In this document: positions 1-60,900 of the stretch, piece by piece
Layout: the number at the start of each line of letters is the position of its first letter
Position numbering within the stretch: the stretch's first letter is position 1
Assembly: GCF_036321535.1 (NCBI RefSeq)
Contig: NC_087436.1
Location: forward strand, 28,894,001-28,958,000
DNA: 64,000 nt
Direction of reading: 5' to 3'
Origin: Camelus dromedarius
Taxonomy: Eukaryota
Position numbers and translations under genes: made by a program
Notes under the pieces: generated by a model
The model's input: only the letters and a program-made list of their open reading frames with translations
Databases searched by the model: none
Told to the model about the DNA's origin: nothing

Positions 1-689
1 TTTAGACTAGTAATCTTCTCTATCGATTTTGATTTTTATATTATCTTAAATCCAGAGAGAATTTATTTCATTCTAAAAACATAGATTAAAATAACCAAAT
101 AATTCTCTATCTCATTAGTTGCTACCAAGAAGCTCTCCAAACACTTGCAAAAATTTTTGAGTACAGGTAGGAGACAAAGAGTAAGGGATAAGAAGAATAT
201 AAATTGAAATTTTATCAATTTGTTATGTTATAATCTATTCTGCTCATCATTCTGAAATATTATCTTTTATCTTTATCTTAAATAATGTATCATATATATA
301 AAGTCATAAATAATAGTAAAACATTATTCTGTTTGTAACATTAAATGTTATATATAACATTATATTAATATATATATATAAAATATTGACATACCACTTT
401 ATAGATTGCAAATGTTTTTACCAAATTTAATCTACACAACAACGATGTGAGAGAGGCTTTGTCATTAAATTGCCTTTAATAGTTTGTGCAAAAGCTTCTT
501 AACTCCTCTGGGCCTTTGTTTCCTTATTATTAAAGGAGGGAAGTATACTAAACGATTTCCAAGCTTCATTCTAGCCAAAAAAATAATTAATTTTAAATAA
601 AGATGGCAAGTGCCATAGACTAATAGTCTATCTCCAAAGTAGTTTTCTTTTCTTGTCACACAGCTACAGGTGGTATTATGCACTATGAT

Positions 690-15510: not shown

Positions 15511-15636
15511 CTTTCCCACCCTCACACCCTAATAGCATCACTTTTTTCCTTGACATAGACTGAAAATAAGCTGGAATAGCTAGACTACTCTGATTAAATG
15601 ATTCTCAAGAAGACATCACAGAAATTAATGAAATCA

Positions 15637-15790
15637 GTACGGGAAACTATATTCAATAGCTTGTAATAACCTATAATGAAAAAGAATATGAAAAAGCATA
15701 TATGCATGTGTGTGTGTGTAGCTGAAGCACTGTGCTGCACACCAGAAACTAACACAACATTGTAAATCAGTGATACCTCAATAAAAAATG
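15637..15790 (+). mobile_element. Severely 5'-truncated young L1 (camelid/cetartiodactyl 3' UTR)
   Basis: Contains aactatattcaatagcttgtaataacctataatgaaaaagaatatg...acattgtaaatc...tcaataaaaaa. Exact 12-bp TSD ttaatgaaatca at 15625-15636 and 15791-15802. Confidence 0.92.
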
Positions 15791-18005: not shown

Positions 18006-18431
18006 TAATGTGTTTCAACTTCTATTCATTCAATAGTCATAGATATTTTTCTAAATAAATAATATACGAAATACATGCTCAATGTAGCTGCATACACATC
18101 AACTTGAAAAAAAATAGTTCACTGTGATGATTTGTAACAAAATGAATGTGAAGTGATATTACATTTACATAAGAAGAAACAGTCTTTGTAAAAAAATCCA
18201 GATATAAAAATAAAACAGATATTTTGTGATTTGCCACCTTAAATTACACCTACTTGACTAGAATCAGAGATGAAAGTGATAGATTATTACGATGTTGAAG
18301 GCAGAGCCCGTGTGGTTCACTTCTCCTGGGAGCACATTTGTATTGTAACCCATGGGAGTGACTATGCCTTGCCCAACTCTTGCTCATTCACAAAGATGGC
18401 AAGGTGATTCTCTCTGGATTAGGGCCATGTG

Positions 18432-19030
18432 GTTGATTCAGATACCAAAGTGTGTAAGCAACAGGCAAGAATCCACATAGGTTGTTTCCAAGTAAGATCA
18501 CTTCAGACAACCCTAGCCTACATCTCCTCTTTTTGATGGATTCCACAAACTGATTCTCCACTTCTTCTCTGTCACTGTCCAGTGTGGATCTACTACTTCA
18601 TCTATGTCCAACAGGTAAAAACCAGCAAGTACAAAGATCTCCACCAGTTAGTGCCTAGAGTCCAAAACCTCTTCCAAAATTGAAAAAAAAAAAAATGGAG
18701 AAGGACAGGTAGAGTTTTATTTAAAAATTATTTTAAAACTTCAGCACTCAATATACAAGTAGGCACTTTTCTTCTATTCATAAGGAATTCCTCAGACCAA
18801 CCTCAAGAATCTACTGTGGCCAAGGTCTTCTGGCAAGTCACATCACCCTCTTGGACTTCATTGTACATCTTCCAAACGAGGGTATAATGTTTTCTACTCA
18901 GCTTCTTTAAGATGTCTGTGTACATGGAACACCATATGGAAAGCCAACTAGTTAGCATCCCAACCTCTGTTGGTTCCCTCATTCTACATCTGTTGCTATG
19001 GCTTCCACTGCACAAGCACTGGGCAGCTCA
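18432..19030 (-). pseudogene. ABHD5: Partial processed pseudogene (retrocopy) of ABHD5/CGI-58 covering 5' UTR and exons 1-3
   Basis: Minus strand 18579-18442 translates [46 protein letters not shown], versus ABHD5 [46 protein letters not shown]. 18964-18885 gives LTSWLSIWC and, after a frameshift, HLKEAE*K, versus LTGWLPTWC...HLKEAEEK. The start codon has decayed to ATA (18999-18997) in a CpG-decayed 5' UTR. Stops, frameshifts and no introns. Asn at the nucleophile position distinguishes it from ABHD4 (GHSLG). Confidence 0.92.
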
Positions 19031-19384
19031 CAAAAGGCAGTATACAGCTGGAATCTCCAAATCTTTTGATGGTATACCTTCCTCAATAGCTATTTCTTGC
19101 TTGCTCATGTATTTATTTTTTTTTATTTATTTAAACACTATTCTTATATTGAGATTTTTAAGTGCATTGGAGCCCTGTCCTCTTTTACAATTGCAAAACA
19201 TACTTTTAATAGCATAGTATAATCTATTTTTTAAAGTTAGGACAAAATAGCAGTGACCCACTCAGTCCTAACGTAATTTTTGAGTGCTACATTTTTTGTG
19301 GCCTTTTCAAATTATCCTAAGGCTTTTAATCTATTTAAATTTTCCACTTGTTTCTTATGTATATATTAAATACATTGCTCAATT

Positions 19385-20290
19385 AGGGTTGTTTCAGGAA
19401 TGCAAGTGTAGCTTAGTATCCGGAAGTCTATTAACATTTTCTAATACATTTTAACAGTTGTTCAATAATTGTTGAAAGCCTATAAAATTCAAAAAGTATT
19501 CTTTAAAAATTTTTATTTAACAAAATCCTACTACAAATATTTTATTAAATGTGAAAGCACTAAAATATTAAGTTAATATCAGGAAGTAAATGAATTCTTA
19601 GGTCTCACTATTATTTTTACCTTTTTTATTTAAAAAAATTCCATACTTACATAAAAATTGGAAAATTATTACAAAGAACTCCCTTATAATGCTCATCTAG
19701 ATTCACCAATTAACATTTTGCTACATTTGCTTTATCATATTCTATATTTATATACTTATAAGTAAAATACAAGAATGTTACTAAAATATTATTATATAAT
19801 ATGCAATCCAAATTCAAATATTGTCACATTTTTCATTAATGTCTTCTATCACAATTTTTCCTGTAATTATTAAATTCATATCACTCCTCCATCACTTCAA
19901 TCTGTAAGAATTCCCCAGCCTTTTTTTTCTAAATGATACTGACATTAAACATGGTGTCAGAGATCAAATGTTGCTGTACAGTATGTCCTACAATTTGGGT
20001 TCACCATATTTAATATAGGGGGTACTCAATGCAGTGAGAAAATTAAATAAAGCAATATGGATAGATGGTAGAAAAGAAGATAATTTTGTTCAACACTTGA
20101 TTATATACTTTAAAAATTTTAAGATTAGTAGAAGTGAAAAGGAAATTTGGTAGGATTGCTACAAGAATTTGGTAGGATTGATACAAGAATTTTCAAAATC
20201 CAAATTTTATTTTAGCAATAAATATCTATAATAAAAGAGAAAATATTTTGTTCAAAATTCCAACAAAATGTATTAGAAACTTACGAAATA
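19385..20290 (+). mobile_element. Decayed L1 ORF2 (RT region) fragments, interrupted by an antisense L1 3' end
   Basis: gggttgtttcaggaatgcaag resembles L1 gggatttatcccaggaatgcaag. Also ggtactcaatgcagtgagaaaattaaataaa. Confidence 0.6.
19620..20010 (-). mobile_element. L1MC/L1ME-type 3' end
   Basis: tacttacataaaaattggaaaattattacaaagaactccc...ctagattcaccaattaacattttgctacatttgctttatc. Confidence 0.7.
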
Positions 20291-22767: not shown

Positions 22768-23155
22768 ATTTTATTTTATTTTATTTTTTATATAATTAAA
22801 ATTTTTAATTTTTTTTATGTTTTTGCTGGTGAATTTTTAACACCTTTATTGTGGTATGATTCCTGTACAGTAAATTACACATATTTCAAATGTACAGATG
22901 ATGAATTTTGATAGATGTATACACTAATGAAACCACCACCACAATGAAGGTAGCTAACTCCCCAAGAGGTGCAAATTTTGAATTCCCGATTTATCCCTTC
23001 CCACCCCCCTTACCCTCTAATAACCATAAGTTTGTTTTCTATGTCTGTTAAGTCTGTTTCTGTTTTGTAGCTGAGTTCATTTGTGTCCTTTTTTTAGATT
23101 CCACATATAAGTGATATCATATGGTAGTTTTCTTTCTCTTTCTGGCTTATAATGC
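22768..23155 (-). mobile_element. TSD-flanked truncated L1 insertion with chimeric 3' end
   Basis: TSD agagctgatagatttt (22752-22767) and agaactgatagatttt (23156-23171). T-rich tail on the left. Young L1 3' UTR motif tttagattccacatataagtgatatcatatggta. Confidence 0.88.
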
Positions 23156-25259: not shown

Positions 25260-26500
25260 AGAGTAGAAGTAACCCGGTTCATTGGATTTAGCTTTGTGGA
25301 AGTCATTGATGTCAGAACAAAAAACAGTCTCAGTCACATGGTGGAGTAGAAGCCCGACAGGAATGGCTTCAGGAGGGGATGGTAGGAGGGACGTCGGAGG
25401 CAGGAGAACAGGTGACCATTTTAGGAAATTTACGTAAGTAGAGAAATGTGGTCATTAGAGATACACATGGGTTTAAAAGAGAATAATGGGGGATTTTGTT
25501 TTGTTTATTTCTGGTTTTGTTTTTCTATGTACTTTTTTTAAAGTGAAGTATAGTTAGTTATAATGTGTCAATTTCTGGTACAGCATAATGTCCCAGTCAT
25601 GCATATAGATATAGATATAGATATAGATATATAGATATGTTTATTTTCGTATTCTATTCCATTAAAAGTTATTACAAGATATTGAATATAGTTCCCTGTG
25701 CTATTTCTGGTTTTGTTCTTAAGGTGGGGGTAGCAATGGTTTGTTTGCTGTTGGGTTAGACCCTATAGAGAATGGATATGGATGATGCAGGGAAACAAGC
25801 AATGTTATACTGGGGTCATGTTACTGAGCAGGTGAGAAGAGTTAAGACCAACTATATAAATGGCGGCTCTGGCCTTAGCTAGGGCCACAGATGGTTCATC
25901 CATAATAAAAAAAAAAAAATAGGTTTACTGTACCGGTCAAATATGTGGCAAAGGTGGTGGAGAAAGACTGTGTCCCTTCTGTTTTATGCTCCCACTGAAT
26001 GGGAGCAGGATGAGCTAGGGGAGTACAATATGATTGCTGGGCAGGGCAGCTTTAGCTTTTTAGCTTTTAATGAGATGACATTTAAAGTGAGATTTTCAGT
26101 GTTGCTTTGGGAGTTTTCTCCTAACCACGTCCCTCTACCAGGTTCAGGGAAGGAAAAGGTGAAGAATCGGTTTTAACCAGGCATATAGTATATCCAAGGA
26201 AATCAAAGTTATAGGAAGACAATGGAGATGAGGGCATATTTCAGGCAGCTTAAAGGGGTCTAGAATGTACGATGGGGAGGGAGAGAAGTGATAATGTGTA
26301 GGGTGTGATGGACAATGGGACGTGGCAGGATCAATGGATTCAAGGTGCTAGTGAGAGGAAAGTACGACTTGAGTCAGGACAATGGAGCAAATGAGCTTAC
26401 ATTATTGAAGACAGGGATCAGAGATTGAAATGACACTGAGATGATGAAGAGGTTGTTGTTGAAAATGACAAGTTTGAGGTTAAGATAATGGTAGTAAATA
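25260..26500 (-). mobile_element. LINE-2 fragments
   Basis: Purine-rich antisense L2 motifs ttggatttagctttgtggaagtcattgatg...cagtctcagtcacatggtggagtagaagcc. Confidence 0.7.
25522..25701 (-). mobile_element. 5'-truncated young camelid-type L1 3' end inserted in L2
   Basis: Exact 16-bp TSD tatttctggttttgtt at 25506-25521 and 25702-25717. Contains gttattacaagatattgaatatagttccctgtgc and an internal (GATATA)n expansion. Confidence 0.93.
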
Positions 26501-27660: not shown

Positions 27661-29169
27661 GGTATATGAATTAAGAGAAAAGTTAGAAAATGTTTGCTAA
27701 ATTGGGGGGAAAGAAGATGAAGAAAAACTACTTTTTAAAAAGTTAATATTTTTTGAGTCCTCCATCTTGTTCAGCTCTAGGATTAGGACTGTACCTAGTT
27801 GTATATTGTTATAGATATAATTTGTCGATTAATTGTATATATTTATTATTACTCCCTGAGAATAAAAATAATGACAGTAAAAACTAAACATATTTGTGTA
27901 TATTATTAATAAGCCAGGAACTGTTACTACTATGGTTTAAGACACAGGGAAGTTCAGAAACTATCAACAGCAAAATATTTTAGTCAATGCTTACTTTAAA
28001 ATATGCATGTTCTATGTCATTTGGATAAAGTTTTGCTGGTTTTCTTTGTGTTTTTGAAAATCTAAATTTTAAAATGTTTGAATACATTTATCTTTAAATA
28101 CATTAGCTTAAGATATACCTAGACTTCCTAGGTATATATATTATTTACTTCCTAAATTATTTTTACATCTTTCAGATTGTCTACTAAATCTTTAAGTTAC
28201 TTCCTGTTTGCGGGCAACTGACACTATTGAATTATACAAGGAAAAATAAAGTATCTAAAGCAAGCAGCCGAGATAATCTTATTTTAAAAAGAGACTGTGT
28301 TTATTCAGGGCAGACTAGACTTTAAAACTCTGAGTTTTATCAATTACCTTGTCTGCAATTTGTGCAAATCATATAAGAAAACCAGCAGCAGTTATTCTTA
28401 TACAAGTATTGTACATTGAAAACTGCTTCATAAAATTAAAGATCAGTTTAAACACCTCTAATTAAGTAGGCAATCATCTTCTTACATATATTTAAAATTG
28501 TCTCTGTGTTTTATGTATTACTTTGCTGTATTCTAAATGCACAGATTAGATTGCAAATAGCTTTTGTGTAATTTTATAATAATCTTGATATAAAAAATGT
28601 GGAACTGGATCTAAATCTTAAATAACAAGATTGAATTTAAGGCCAATGGAAATACCAAGTTGTAAAATGCAAATATATTTTTTTATTCTTTTCTTTTCCT
28701 TTTTCAGTTTAATTAGGTAGAATTATTAGTTTGACTGCACATATACATTATATTGCATGTAAATGCATAAATACAATATACTGCACATTTTTTAGTTTGC
28801 ATATATGTACCGATCATCATTTCTAAGAACAGATTAGAGCTTTAGCTTTTTAAACTTACATAATTATCAAAGGAATAAAGCTAACCACAAAATAAGAATC
28901 AATGGAAGGCAGTAATCCAATCATAAAGGACAGTCAAATATTTCTTTTTAAATCATATGTATACAGTTGAAAATTGTCTAAGTAATCCAGAGGAAATCCT
29001 ATTACAAAATGAGTTCTTTGTTCTACCACACCACTGAAAATAGTTATTCTTTTACCATCAGTGATATCTTAATTTTCAAATAAAATTAACAGTTATCTGA
29101 TTTATATATGGTACATCTCAATATTGGTTATTCCAATTTTTGAAAGTTTTCTTTTAGCAAAAGCAGTTC

Positions 29170-39699: not shown

Positions 39700-40560
39700 T
39701 GTTAATATTTAAATGGATGTAAAGGGATAGAACCACTATGTGAAAGCATGATGATTGTTGGCAAGGATATGGAGTAACCGACGCTTCTGCACTGTTGGAG
39801 GAATGTAAAATGGTGCAGTCACTATGGAAAACAGTATGACATTTCCTCAAAAAAATTAGAAATAGAATTACCATATGATCCAGTAATTCCACTTCTGGGT
39901 ACTCAAAAGAATATCCAAAAGAACTGAAAGTGGGGTGTGGAGGAGATGTTTGTACACCCATGTTCAATGGCAGCATTATTCAGACCAGCTAGAAAGTGGG
40001 ATCAACCCAAGTGCCCATGGACAGTGGATAAACAAAATATATATACATACAATGGAATGTTATTCAGCCTTAAAAAGAAGGAAAATTCTAACACATAGAG
40101 CAACATGGATGAGTCTTGAGGACATTAAGCTAAATACAATAAGCCAGTCACAATTAGACAAATACTATATATTTCCACTTATATGACACATCTAGTGTAG
40201 TCAAATTTATAGTAACAGAAATTAGAATGGTGGTCACCAGCGGCTGGGGGAGAGGCAGAAATGGGGGCTTGTTCTTTAACAGGTATTGTTTCAGTTCTGC
40301 AAGATGAAAAAGTTCTGGAGATCTTTTTCACAGCATTGTGAATACACTTAACCCTACTGAACCTCACACTTAAAAATGATTCAGAGTGGGGAGGGTATAG
40401 CTCAAGCAGTAGAGTGCATACTTAGCATGCACGAGGTCCTGGGTTCAATCCGCAGTGCCTCCTCTAAAAATAAATAAAAATAAATAAATCTAATTACCTC
40501 CCCCCAGAAAAAGAAAATGATTCAGGTGCTAAGTGTAATGTCATGTGTATTTTACCATAG
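39700..40560 (+). mobile_element. L1MA/L1MB 3' end (ORF2 C-terminus plus 3' UTR), interrupted by a SINE
   Basis: Contains gaatgtaaaatggtgcagtcactatggaaaacag, atagaattaccatatgatccag, caatggaatgttattcagccttaaaaagaagg and caagatgaaaaagttctggagat. Confidence 0.93.
40385..40513 (+). mobile_element. tRNA(Ala)-derived camelid SINE (Vic-1 type)
   Basis: ggggagggtatagctcaagcagtagag (A box) ... gtcctgggttcaatcc (B box), with A-rich tail taaataaatctaattacctcccc. Exact 12-bp TSD aaaatgattcag at 40373-40384 and 40514-40525. Confidence 0.92.
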
Positions 40561-43260
40561 TTTCTGTTTGTTTGTTTTTTAATCACGGTGATATGGCTTT
40601 AAAACAAAGGGAACAGCTTTAATGAATATCCAGAAGAGTGGGGTGGGAAGAAAACAAGGCAACTTAGTACTTTCTGGAGACTAAAAGGCCAAAGTTTAAG
40701 AAGCCTCCATTGTTAAAGATTATCCCAGGTCTTGCGGGCCATTATTAAGAGTTTTAATACCGCTCAGTGTAAAGTAAGAATGTATTGAAATGTTCCAGAA
40801 AGATCAACAACTTGGGAAGATGCCTCTTGTTTCTTACTGGGACTCTGACCAACTCAGAAACACGTGATAGATCTAAAAGGTGGTCTCTCTACTGAATAAC
40901 CCAGTATTAATTGTCAAGAAAATATGTTATGAGTTCAAGAAAGGAAAGATAGTCACCATTGGCTATGTTTATGGGACTTACAGGGCCTTTCTGTAGACCT
41001 AGGAAATAAAAATAATCACCATTCCTTGTCATCATCCTTCACCCCAGACCCAAGGCAGGCTCTGTTAGGATGCCTGGGAAACAAAAATATTCAGAAAGAT
41101 TCACTGAATTTGAGAGGAAGGAAGGGAAGGGAAGACAAAGGAATGGTTAGGATAAGAGGAGGAAAGGAGGGGGAGGGAGTGAGGTCACATAGCAACAAGG
41201 CAGGAGGCAGAATCTGAGAGGAAATTTGGTCAGGATAGTAAATAGATGTTTTAGGAAAAGTATGTTTAATTTTCATTTTTACGTTGTTTGCATTGCTGCT
41301 TGGTAAATGTTCTCCAGCTTCTTAATACCTCAGATAATCTGCACGTGTACAAATGCCTCATATAAGTATTTCAGAGAATAAAAATCAAGGATCATGTTGG
41401 GTTTCTTGTCTGGCTCAGTGAGGTAACTAAGAAAACATAACAGCCAGATGAGAAAGAAATGCTTGAGAAAGGGAGTTAGTAATGAAAAGCTGAAACTTCA
41501 GATCGCAGAGAATGAAATCCCTTAGGAAGCCACAAGACTTTCAGGAAAGCACTGGATTACCCACATGATCTGGGTGAGGGTAGCTGAGCCAGTCTACATT
41601 TCAGAGGGCAGTGCGACATCAGCTGGCATCTGAATTTAAAATAAATGAATAAAAAGCAGGACTTGAGTACTCCTTAAAGTTCTGTTCTTACATTCTCCTA
41701 TGGAACTCACGAGAGCAGAGTGTGTGTAGTTCACCAATGCTGACTCATGAAATGTGCTCAATAAATATGTGTCTGATAAAGAATGAGTACCAGTTCCAAA
41801 TTTATTACCAAATGATGCCACTTTCTCCATGGCCTTCTAAATTGGAAAACATCTCTTGACAAAATTTGCACCCACCCACAATCTCCTCCACTTCATATTA
41901 ACCCAGGAGAAGCTGCTTCTTACGATGAGATGATGCAACTTCAACTTCTCTCCACCTAGAAAGTTGTTAAGGTGTCTTATCCTTCTGCTTCATCCGGATT
42001 CCTCCTCTCCTTCATCCAGAGTTTTGTTTCATGAATAATCTGTTCTCCTAAATCATCTTCTACTTTCTCCTTGTTATTTTGCTTTCCCCCTGCCTTCTGT
42101 AAGAGTAAGAGTAACCCCCTGGCGATGGGCAAAGAGACACCTGATTGGCGGTGCTGCTCTTCTGTCAGTCAGGGGCAAAGTGGGTGTCTAGCCCTTTTTC
42201 CATCTTAGCTTGATGCTTGGGTTGGTGGCCAGAGTTGTTTCATGCCTGGGGGTCCGGGAAAAAAAAAAGAGAATAAGTGTGATATCTTACAAGCGTCAAA
42301 TAAATTAGAAACAAAATATCTCTGGAATTTGTTCATTTTTTCAGCTATCTCCTTATTCTGACCCTGTATTATCTATCAAATATCTTGACAAAAAATACTA
42401 TTTCAAAATTAGCCTCTAAATATTTTGTAAACGTGCATATGTTTTATGTATTATTAATTCAATAGTAAGTATTAAAAAAAACTCAATATACAGTATTTTA
42501 ATAAAGGGCTTCTATCGACCTAAAATGTTCAACAATATTCCAGATGTTTTAGTAAGAGGTAATTGATGTACTTTGACAATTTGACTAAATACATCTCCCG
42601 AAGTAGAGTTTTTGTGAGAATCTATTCTGTAACTATATAACCACGCTGGTCCTTATTCCAGTCCAACTGGCACATCTTTAACTAAAGACACTATTTCTTG
42701 ACATTTACAACACCTGTGTGCTTAGGCAAGTTTGTGCTTATATTTTCTTACCTAAATCACAGAAATTATATCTACTCTACAAGGTTTTAAATGAAATTGT
42801 ATATGCAAATCATTATGCATAGAATTGATATTCAATACATATTTTTGTTAATTCACTGATTCTGTTTCTCAATTTAAGCCTCTGAGTATAGCCTTTGCCT
42901 TTCACAAATGCTTAAGAAACTTTAAAAAAAAAATAACCTGTTTTAAATTTCAAGTTAGGCAAGGGAGTCTGAAGCCTATAGTTAAATAATAATTTTCAGA
43001 ACATGAAAATTTGGAGGATACAAGAATATTTTCATATATCTCACTTCTAAAGTGCAGTAGAGAAGCCCTGCTATATTATTTAGGTGGAAGGGAACAGATT
43101 TACTTAAGCAGTTTAAGACACTCTGTAAGAGGGTTTTATTTTAAGGATGTCAATGATTTAGAGTTTGAACACAACAGGACACTGAGACAGAAATCACTGC
43201 ATGCCAGAGCCTCAGCTAGAGTAAGGCAGCTCGGGGTCTCAGCTGCAGTACTTTGTAACT

Positions 43261-51264: not shown

Positions 51265-52576
51265 GAGTAAAGACAGTCTCTTAAGCCAATAGTGTTGGGA
51301 TAACTGGCCAGCTGCATATAAATCAGTGAAGTTAGAATATTCCCTCACACTATAGACAAAAATAATCTCAAAATGGCTTAAAGACTTAAACATAAGACAA
51401 GACATTATAAACCTCTTAGAAGAAAACATAGGCAAAACATTATCTGACATAAATCTTAGCATTGTTCTCCTAAAGCAGTCTACCCAGGCAATAAAAATTA
51501 AAGCAAAAATAAACCAATGGGACCTAAATCAACTTATAAGCTTTTGCACAGCAAAAGAAACCACAAACAAAACAAAAAGACGACCTACAGAATGGGAGAA
51601 AATAGTTGCAAAAGATAAGACTGACAAAGGCTGAATTTCCAGGATATATAAACAGCTCATACAACTTAATAAGAAAAAAACAAACAACCTAATCCAAAAA
51701 CGATCAGAAGATCTAAACAAGCAATATCCAGTGAAAACATACAAATGGCCAATAGCCACATGAAAAAATGCTCAATATTGCTAATTATCAGAGAAATGTA
51801 AATCAAAACTACAGTGAGGTATCACCTCACACCAGTCAGAATGGCCATCATTCAAGAGTTCACAAACAATAAATGCTGGAGAGGGTGTGGAGAAAAGGGA
51901 ACCCTCCTACACTGTTGGTGGGAATGTAGTTTGGTACAGCCATTATGGAAAACAGTATGGAGATTCCTCAAAAGACTAAAAATAGATTTACTACATGATC
52001 CAGCCATCCCATGCACCCTAATGTTCATAGAAGCACTATTTACAGTAGCCAAGACATGGAAACAACCTAAATGTCCATCAACAGATCTGGATAAAGAAGT
52101 CATGGTATATTTAAACAATATACTACTCAGCCATAAAATAGAATGAAATAATGCCATTTGCAGCAACAAGGGTGGACCTGGAGAATGTCATTCTAATTGA
52201 AGTAAGCCAGAAAAAGAAAGAAAAATACCATATGATATCACTTATATGTGAAATGTACAAAAAAAGACAAATAAATTTATTTACAAAACAGAAACAAAGA
52301 CATAGAAAACAAACTTATGGATGCCAGTAAGGGAGGGGGATGGGAAGGAATAAATTGGGAATTCAGGATTTGTAGATACTAACTACTATATATAAAATAG
52401 AAAAATAACAAGTTCATATTGTATAGCACAGGGAACTATATTCAATATCTTATAGTACTTAGAATGAAAAAGAATATGAAAACGAATATATGTATGCTTA
52501 TGTATGACTGAGGCATTAAGCTGTACAACAGAAATTGATACAACATTGTAAACTGACTATACTTCAATAAAAATAA

Positions 52577-52631
<55 letters not shown>

Positions 52632-58030: not shown

Positions 58031-60489
58031 GTTTTTAAGATTTTTACTTTTATATCTGAATTTTACATTAGCTCCTTTAAATTTAATTAAGGTAAGATAA
58101 CAAATTAAGTGTCCAGTTTTTTGAATGAGATAATCCTGGATTCAAATCCAAACTTTGTACATGACTTAATTAGGTAAATTCTATGCTCCTTTGAAGCTCA
58201 CCTGGTCAGTTGCTGCAATCCCCGAGTAAAAGAACACTTCACACACAGTCCCACGCAGTGTTAAAAATCACGTTTAAGTCTGATAACGGGTTTTGTTTTC
58301 GATTGGTTAAATTTGTGATAACTTACTTAGATGTGGGTAATATAAATTACTTTTCGTGGCATCCTAAATAAAGACACTTAAAAGAGTATTTGCTGTAATC
58401 CTTATCAAATGCAGGAATCGAACTTACTACATTAGGTATTTTCATTAAAGAAAATTGGCCACTTTTAAGGCTCTCGACTCCATTTGACGGTTATTAAAGG
58501 TTTATTATCTATTAGTCAGCTTCAGGTTAGTCACAAATGTCGGGCCCAGCTCTCCAGATTTCATTCTTTGGGATTATTGCTCAGGGGGAGGAAGGAACTC
58601 TAAGCTTTCAATTTTTAGAACTATGTTATTTTTCTCCAAAATATTTATCCTGTGAATAAACCTTGGCTTCTTTATGGGCATCTGGTGTTTGTCTCTGTCC
58701 ATGGAAGTGATAGAGGGAAAAAGGGACACAGTCGAGTTTTCTATTTACCTAAAACATGGAACACCATAAGTAAACCTTCCAACTTAATCAAATGGACCTG
58801 ACAAATTTTCTCTTTAAAGTAACTAGAACTATTCTAGTAAGCTTTTTTTTTTTTGTACAGTTCAACACAGAGCTATCACTTTGAAAGGCATAAAAATCTC
58901 AGCATGCTACAAAACAATGCCCATATGTCCATTTTGAAAAATTGATACTTTATCCCAAAGACAAGAGAATTAAAGACCATTATTTCCATCTAAACTGTAA
59001 ATTAATGTATTTTAATAAATACAAAAGTACTCAAGATAAGTTCTTGAAAGTCTAATCATATAATAGTAAATAAAAACCAAACTGAATTATTCTCAATTGA
59101 TCTTCTACCATCATTCAAAGTAAGAAGTATGTAAATCTCACTAAAAATTCAGCATTTCTAACCCAAGAGTACAGGGAAACCAGTACACCACAAAAAGGAT
59201 GATGTGTCTATTTTGTGCTATGAATTACAGTGTGTGAATCTGGAAAAATTACATTTATTCCTGTTCATTTAAGAAGGAAGTTGTGCTACGGTGTCAAGAC
59301 CAATGGGACAGACTTAATCATCAAGTTCATTATCAAGCTAAGGCCAAATCTTTCAACCACTGCTATTTATTAAGCCTATACATCCTTCACAATATCTCAA
59401 AACACAATAACAGAGCTACAATACCTTGAAGGTCAGTGTTTCCATTATAACATGAATAGAACCAACCATTGTTTTTACTATTATTCAGATGCCGCAGAGA
59501 CTCAGAAGTGAAAGGGCATAAATGATTACTTTGAGTAGGTTATAGCAAGACTTCTGCACGACCCCATTGTCAGTGATCGTGCTGAACAAACCAAACTACT
59601 TCCAGTTTTACCAAAAATTGCCATGATTTCAAAAAGAAACCCCAATTTATATTGAAATTATCCTTCCTGAAGTGCTCAATAATTTCAGAAGCAGGTGGAA
59701 AATAGAAACACCAATAGTCAGAGACAATCAAATATCCTCCTGATTTTTGAAATCTTGATGCTGATAAACCACTAGTAAAAACATCAATCTTTGAAAAATT
59801 CTTGAACTGATTATATATTTTGAGGAAAGAGTTTGGAAGAACTCTTTCTCTGTCCTGCAAGCTAGGATATGGCAGAAGGACTCACTTTTGGAACGTGGTG
59901 CCATGAGGGTTTTTGCAGACATGCTCCCCAGGGAAAGAATTATGTTATGTTGAAAATTATTTTTAAAAACACCCATTTTTTTAAATATTAAAAAAAAGAA
60001 ATGTCTTATCCTCCATAATAATGTATTTAAATTATAAAAATAATAGATTTATTTAAATATACTTATGTTTATTTTTCCACTGCTACTGAATCCCTAACAA
60101 AAGCCATAAAAATTTCTGATGATCTGATAACAAAAATAGGACCAGCTAACTACTAATCTCAAGCTCCAAACTCAGATGTGCAGTTGCAATCAATTCATGC
60201 TAAATTTAATCAATTCAATTTAAAATTTATTTTAGTCAAATTAATGTTTTCATCAGACTTGAATGTGGGCTGTCGTGAGGGGAGCTTCCTTAGTCATTTG
60301 TTCGTGAATGTTCCTCCTCATGCACCCTAGTCCTCTGCTGTGACATGCAGTTTTCCAGCTGGTTCTCAGCCAGTTAGGTTGAACTGGACGTGGAAGCACC
60401 CTCTTCTTGCTTGTCAGTCGTGCAACATCTCACTTTTTGCCCCTTTTAGAAATAATTAAGGGAAGTTGTGTAAAGAAGTGATTAACAGA

Positions 60490-60660
60490 ACAAATTCAGA
60501 TTTCACTCTAACTACATAAGTGACCTGGGACAAGTTACTTAACTTTCCTCTCCCTCAGTTATCTGATCTGTAAAATAATAGTATAAACTATTTCATAAGG
60601 TTATTGTAAGGATTGAATACACATAAATCACTTTAAATATTGCCTGATATATAAGATGCA
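60490..60660 (+). mobile_element. MIR SINE
   Basis: Core gtgacctgggacaagttacttaactttcctctccctcagttatctgatctgtaaaat. Confidence 0.9.
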
Positions 60661-60734: not shown

Positions 60735-60900
60735 GTATTATATTGTTGACTTACTATTATGTTGTTGACTCCATATCACACTTTTTTACAGAAGAGGAAA
60801 CTGAAGCCCAGGGATATTAAATACTATGATCAATATCACACCAAGGATGTCAAAGTCAAGATTTGAATCCAAATCGGCTGAGATTTCAGAGCATAAGTGT
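60735..60900 (-). mobile_element. MIR SINE (antisense)
   Basis: ttttacagaagaggaaactgaagcccagggatattaaa...caagatttgaatccaaatc. Confidence 0.88.

Follow-up and report, generated by a model that had tools for sequence, protein, structure and literature searches.

Processed pseudogenes were reportedly described by Shemesh et al. in 2006 as archives of transcript isoforms. Retrocopies are also recognized as isoform archives in portions of two papers (PMC4772013; PMC5470649), and MIR elements are known to supply exons, with examples in excerpts on FGB, where an antisense MIR exon derives from intron 1 (PMC4615370), and on BLOC1S2 (PMC6822395). According to the part of PMC2394776 that bears on splicing, 121 of the 181 MIR exons in human are antisense, 84 of 100 MIR exons in coding regions bring a stop codon, the AG after the pyrimidine run is the most used SINE acceptor, and CTA/gtaagt is the main MIR donor. 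The locus described here probably brings these two themes together in ABHD5, a co-activator of ATGL that is mutated in Chanarin-Dorfman syndrome and whose Met1-Cys45 region binds lipid droplets (PMC9694394, in excerpt). In a window of 64 kb, by which we mean the whole stretch of DNA that was analyzed, we studied a decayed ABHD5 retrocopy that carries additional sequence close to the exon 2/3 junction.

A decayed processed copy of ABHD5

The minus strand at ~18434-19065 holds a decayed processed copy of ABHD5 made up of 5′UTR and exons 1-3 (Table 1). The locus had been taken as ABHD5-derived in the sequence-only reading, and homology searches bear this out. The read-through frame (X at stops) had 60 protein matches with E values of at most 0.001; the best two were an exon-3 ORF without a name and a sequence labelled as sperm whale ABHD5. 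In addition, tblastn with the whale ABHD5 as query gave an E value of 2e-19 at 18678-18442. A frameshift-aware alignment to codon profiles built from three mammalian ABHD5 proteins scored 199 bits and ran from c.44 to c.531. The lesions in this alignment are indels of one base, deletions (17, 11 and 5 nt), a T run expanded by 13 nt and a 90-nt insertion, and the reading frame is disabled by stops and frameshifting indels. A 69-aa piece returned nothing useful from Pfam or PDB and 0 matches in a word-indexed search, and alpha/beta-hydrolases led the Atlas search, all of them below 0.9.

Table 1. Features of the ABHD5 retrocopy and its insert (positions within the window).
Feature	Position	Strand	Evidence or remark
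ABHD5 5′UTR end and exon 1 coding part, decayed	18965..19065 (upper limit approximate)	-	codon profile
ABHD5 exon 2 (c.48-133), adjoins exon 1 directly	18881..18964	-	53.7 bits, 0/200 null windows as high
Insert, exon 2/3 junction	18791..18880	-	90 nt = 30 codons; boundaries uncertain by several bases
Insert part matching antisense MIR core-like copies	18832..18880	-	ancestral profile, ends at insert base 49
ABHD5 exon 3 (c.134 to about c.500-506)	18434..18790 (lower limit approximate)	-	codon profile
Relatively G+C-rich tail after exon 3	18260..18433	-	no ABHD5 exon matched

The 5′UTR and exon 1 together scored 34.7 bits (P0081) and 25.3 bits (P0087), in each case with 0/200 null windows as high, and scored more weakly against two whale templates (7/200 and 12/200). 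The exon 1 coding sequence by itself was equalled by 26/200 null windows, and no further significant ABHD5 match was found upstream of this part. Exon 1 adjoins exon 2 directly, which means that intron 1 was spliced out and that the locus is a processed copy; the c.47/48 boundary follows from c.47+1G>A (PMC3019207, in excerpt) and is also given by intron-1 read-through proteins. Exon 3 was recovered in two parts (26.7 and 137.1 bits, each 0/200 null windows) and is damaged by frameshifts, stops, the 17- and 11-nt deletions and the T expansion, which lies at 18683-18695.

Exons 4, 5, 6 and 7 were not detected, with 17, 37, 97 and 59 of 200 null windows scoring as high, respectively; the full alignment extends to c.531, but exon 4 alone was non-significant. 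The retrocopy thus has a 5′ end, yet its ABHD5 homology ceases within a few bases of the exon 3 end. Retrocopies normally retain the 3′ end, and the missing part goes back either to a non-canonical last exon in the template, to internal priming or to a later deletion. As a source of the tail that follows exon 3, an exon in pig intron 3 was considered and rejected (414/1000 null windows as high). No poly(A) tail or flanking duplication of the retrocopy was recognized, their decay being expected at such an age, and the 3′ end is undefined.

Among 229 invariant, non-degenerate sites, 51 have changed (22%; K2P 0.27). Judged by typical branch lengths, the retrocopy is probably at least as old as the placental radiation. 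The locus has no evident function today and looks dead. A 328-residue degenerate ABHD5-like protein (P0007), which has neither a Met start nor an insert between exons 2 and 3, is possibly a retrocopy from another animal.

Of 24 listed runs, four were compared with the stretch. In the DNA run, which bears a second organism label and may be a source of this DNA, one contig spans all of it with zero differences, too small a distance for dating the insert. Parts of the stretch are covered by three RNA or RNA-guess runs, in which DNA carry-over is possible; they contain no joint and do not establish transcription, and none covers 18755-18865, a gap that carries no weight. Junction joints were likewise absent from all 4 runs, which could not capture the diverged parent gene. 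The RNA or RNA-guess contigs (three runs, two studies) stop at 18358, 18374 and 18367, without a listed loose end, where the DNA run continues. As a sign of a transcript end at 18358-18374, these stops are a weak hint, one contig being a single read long and DNA carry-over being possible.

A 90-nt insert near the exon 2/3 junction

Exon 2 homology ends after HLKEAE*KTLY and picks up again at GIPYE*KK, with exactly 90 nt in between, so the homology break first noticed at ~90 nt has that length to the base. The exon 2/3 boundary, given earlier as c.133/134 in the Cys45 codon, is confirmed by two kinds of sequence. Exon-3 ORFs read through from intron 2 (P0002, P0062-67) leave ABHD5 exactly in the Cys45 codon and run as far as the exon 3 donor, and the isoforms without exon 2 that occur in horse, bats, loris and cattle have their junction in this codon too. 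The insertion point was estimated by sliding over 53 positions; c.131 was best, the 95% interval was c.123/127-c.135, and c.133 received a weight of 0.13-0.15. The interval takes in the exon 2/3 boundary, and the insert site is compatible with the junction, not pinned to it. By simple arithmetic, an interval of ~11 nt within ~490 aligned nt favors the junction over a random site by a likelihood ratio of some 20-70, a figure that varies with the number of junctions allowed. Nearly zero ABHD5 sequence has been lost or duplicated at the site. The GAG that was seen as resembling an exon end deserves little weight, as the boundary on the right could be off by several bases.

A target-site duplication around the segment had been named as a sign of later insertion, and none is present in register. 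Their absence says little, since in insertions of MIR age these duplications have decayed past recognition (PMC6822395, in excerpt). An 8/12 look-alike near both insert ends was rejected as a duplication, being out of register and the best of 289 offsets.

Likeness of the insert to antisense MIR

Three copies in the window (~60480-60620, minus strand; 60750-60900, plus strand; 440-570, minus strand), which were located by MIR motifs and are labelled as MIR-like on that basis, served as the reference, and they detect each other in leave-one-out searches. Against an ancestral profile, an estimate of the common ancestor of the three copies, the insert scored 21.1 bits (z 4.7), a value reached by 2/1396 tiles and 4/1000 shuffles. 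When the copies were held out in turn, they scored 29-34 bits vs 14.5-18.4 bits for the insert. The antisense MIR likeness proposed earlier therefore stands for the first ~49 nt under this profile, but it was faint or missing with plain scoring against the copies, which was not significant (500/2514 tiles and 64/2000 shuffles as high), with the strict 90-mer (35-535 of 2094 tiles as high across 12 parameter sets) and with nhmmer profiles, which did not report the insert. Composition-aware scoring on 100 nt placed the insert above all 5020 tiles and 3000 shuffles, a test in which 10 added bases are perhaps exon 2 and the scoring was picked after the plain scheme had failed. Used alone as a query against the 64-kb window, the insert gave no match.

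The insert is colinear with one MIR-like copy at 60/96 columns. An acceptor-like AG is found at 18870-18869, 12 nt inside the insert, where the copies have the AG of the pyrimidine run, and the MIR-like part is devoid of the flank that copy m1 retains on that side. MIR motif scans of public sequence collections yielded 0 usable copies (3 bacterial and 8 phage matches, with unrelated flanks), and Rfam returned three weak matches far under the gathering scores. Judged by these alignments, the first half of the insert (~49 nt) is probably an antisense MIR core. The MIR identity of the insert is moderately supported, with a signal that depends on scoring, and the last ~41 nt have no MIR support.

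The partial nature of the likeness, limited to the first ~49 nt and varying in significance with the scoring, would also suit filler DNA, in which the 90 nt came from an unrelated locus through a double-strand break or a template switch during reverse transcription and any MIR likeness is incidental or partial. The retrocopy does have several other large indels. These are, however, deletions or the T-run expansion and contain no foreign sequence, and filler DNA leaves the splice-junction position unexplained; we consider an origin of this kind quite improbable.

Timing bears on another possibility, namely that a MIR inserted at a later time into a canonical ABHD5 retrocopy, by chance close to the exon 2/3 junction, and has been trimmed since. 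The branch length of the insert (0.31; 0.08-0.60) is indistinguishable from that of the retrocopy (0.27), which leaves room for a later insertion, and the K2P distance of the retrocopy falls within the 25-35% divergence given for MIR in the excerpt of PMC6822395, so that the two periods may overlap. The insert boundaries also differ from the usual MIR splice sites, and the MIR likeness may continue into the last ~7 nt of exon 2. Yet such an event would have had to land within ~11 of 490 nt and to lose the MIR 3′ part while leaving exon 2 almost intact, and it left no in-register duplication. On balance we regard it as unlikely, although it is the strongest competitor of a splicing origin.

Several other elements were observed in the window. 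The reference copies at 60480-60620 and 60750-60900 lie ~150 nt apart in opposite orientation, and a further MIR-like candidate is located near 27901-27990 on the plus strand. Interspersed repeats with 66-85% mutual identity occur at 15630-15787, 22972-23149, 25500-25707, 39756-40185 and 51565-52608, and presumably represent L1 3′ pieces. A full-length SNORA48 match on the plus strand at 42114-42258 (55.7 bits; gathering score 50) is followed by an A-run of ~11 and looks like a retroposed snoRNA copy. A tandem duplication with a 22-nt unit (2.2 copies, 96% matches) lies at 20144-20192.

Intron 2 and the isoforms of the parent gene

The ends of ABHD5 intron 2 were taken from read-through proteins. 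The insert showed no likeness to the last ~110 nt of the intron (320/500 null windows as high) or to its first ~20 nt (330/500), the latter being a short query of low power. Since it resembles neither end, the insert is not a simple splice-site extension and, if intron-derived, would be an internal cassette. The same comparisons make two further origins very unlikely, namely a leftover of intron 2 retained in the transcript and a lengthening of either neighboring exon by use of another splice site close by. A view of this kind is favored by the end of homology near the exon 3 end, from which the template may have been an irregular transcript.

Of the pattern matches in DNA collections, 0/10 viral, 0/96 genome and 1/375 metagenome sequences proved to be relatives, the single one being distant (34%), and no mammalian ABHD5 locus was among them. 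Extra residues were present at the exon 2/3 junction in 0/106 stored ABHD5-like proteins having both exon motifs, a comparison that a stop-containing exon would escape. Among the 110 ABHD5 cluster members listed, 73 are canonical by a strict pattern, 0 have a gap and 37 are without one of the motifs.

Annotated ABHD5 isoforms were compared with the insert. The 50-aa isoforms of human and pig (P0186/P0185) were rejected as carriers of the cassette, as both result from skipping of exon 3: the tail in each species is reproduced by 16 codon combinations of its own exon 4 and by 0 of the other species. The human 84-aa isoform (P0187) matches a shifted frame of exon 3, the 308-aa isoform b (P0235) starts at Met42, and the 44-aa isoform 5 of chimpanzee and orangutan (P0190; PNI81130.1, PNJ74509.1) ends exactly at Lys44, which is the end of exon 2. 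This ape form may derive from an unobserved exon by which a stop codon is completed, or may be an incomplete model, and no tie between it and the insert emerged. In models from bovids, dolphins and Myotis (P0209, P0308, P0309, P0311, P0276, P0286, P0269, P0271), other exons are spliced to exon 3. As a source of the insert these upstream exons were discarded, with 172, 141 and 345-506 of 600 null windows as high, respectively, the first two being too short for much power. The Myotis upstream exon shows a weak likeness to a sense-strand MIR copy (26-34/600, one of three copies).

Consequence for the protein

The sequence-only reading assigned an in-frame stop or a frameshift to the segment. The former was found, as the insert today contains three in-frame TGA codons, but with a length of 90 nt it keeps the frame. 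Two other MIR-like copies also have a TGA where the first of these lies in the alignment, and this, combined with the 84/100 stop-bearing MIR exons in coding regions, makes a decay-targeted isoform likely. A poison exon, as suggested before, is in this respect plausible. The other outcome that had been put forward, a downstream start that drops the lipid-droplet anchor, finds no footing: no ATG of the insert is in frame with exon 3, the final complete codon of the insert is a stop, and Met42, where isoform b starts, precedes the insert. Were translation to end directly after Lys44, nothing but the lipid-droplet-binding region, Met1-Cys45, would remain.

A MIR-derived cassette exon as the favored explanation

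The processed copy, the insert, its junction position, its partial MIR likeness and its mismatch with both ends of intron 2 form the observed basis for interpreting the insert as a MIR-derived cassette exon that was spliced into the copied mRNA, an interpretation that we consider rather more probable than not. An antisense MIR would have sat in ABHD5 intron 2, from which a cassette exon of ~90 nt may occasionally have been spliced between exons 2 and 3. A minor ABHD5 transcript, with intron 1 removed and the cassette included, would then have been reverse-transcribed, putatively by L1-type copying, in an early placental or pre-placental ancestor. The cassette most likely held a stop codon, in which case the transcript would have been an isoform targeted for decay or mere splicing noise.

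Given the TPRT mechanism, the 3′ end is expected to be kept when a SINE inserts directly. The junction position, the antisense orientation, the near-zero loss of ABHD5 sequence and the missing MIR flank together support splicing, and in other lineages (bovids, dolphins, Myotis) the exon 3 acceptor is indeed joined to additional upstream exons. Some observations count against a cassette. The junction is best placed at c.131 rather than at c.133. With the usual acceptor AG 12 nt inside the insert, an acceptor further upstream must be assumed, and the main MIR donor, CTA/gtaagt, is not recognizable at the insert end, where boundaries are uncertain after decay. Furthermore, transcripts that are targeted for decay seldom serve as templates for copying. 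The retrocopy, the position, the orientation and the lack of a target-site duplication fit the earlier proposal of an exonised MIR, in which the source in intron 2 is putative and an acceptor other than the expected AG would have been used.

A far bolder version of the cassette origin would have a MIR exon that is conserved in intron 2 across placental mammals, gives rise to the 44-aa isoform of apes and serves as a splicing switch to reduce the ATGL co-activator; the retrocopy would then be an old transcript composed of 5′UTR, exons 1-2, a MIR poison exon, exon 3 and a non-canonical 3′ end. We give this scenario very little chance of being correct.

If intron 2 does hold the source of the insert, the retrocopy sets a minimum age for MIR exonization in ABHD5, and the intron would harbor a latent pseudoexon, in which variants deep in the intron might have an effect.

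Comparison with known systems

No paper on an ABHD5 pseudogene or intron-2 exon was found in the literature searched, and ABHD5 is absent from one supplement each of PMC11632617 and PMC2394776; exon lists in further papers may bear on novelty. The annotated ABHD5 isoforms resemble the putative insert-bearing transcript in that splicing is changed around exons 2 and 3, but they differ from it in kind: the 50-aa forms skip exon 3, the 84-aa form uses a shifted exon 3 frame, isoform b begins at Met42 and the 44-aa form terminates at Lys44.

Like the MIR exons described in the portions of PMC2394776 and PMC2879366 that deal with them, the insert is antisense in its MIR-like part, which probably corresponds to the core region, likely introduces a stop and lies early in the coding sequence. 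Unlike them, it has the common acceptor within its own sequence and a main donor that cannot be recognized, and it is known here from DNA alone. Similar to the pseudogenes that serve as isoform archives, the ABHD5 locus is a retrocopy with spliced junctions and carries, at an exon-exon junction, a segment absent from the canonical mRNA. It differs from these in being ~22% diverged, in having no detectable exons 4-7 and in that the intronic source is here putative. Taken together, the insert is real and probably a new example of two known phenomena, retrocopies that record isoforms and MIRs that supply exons.
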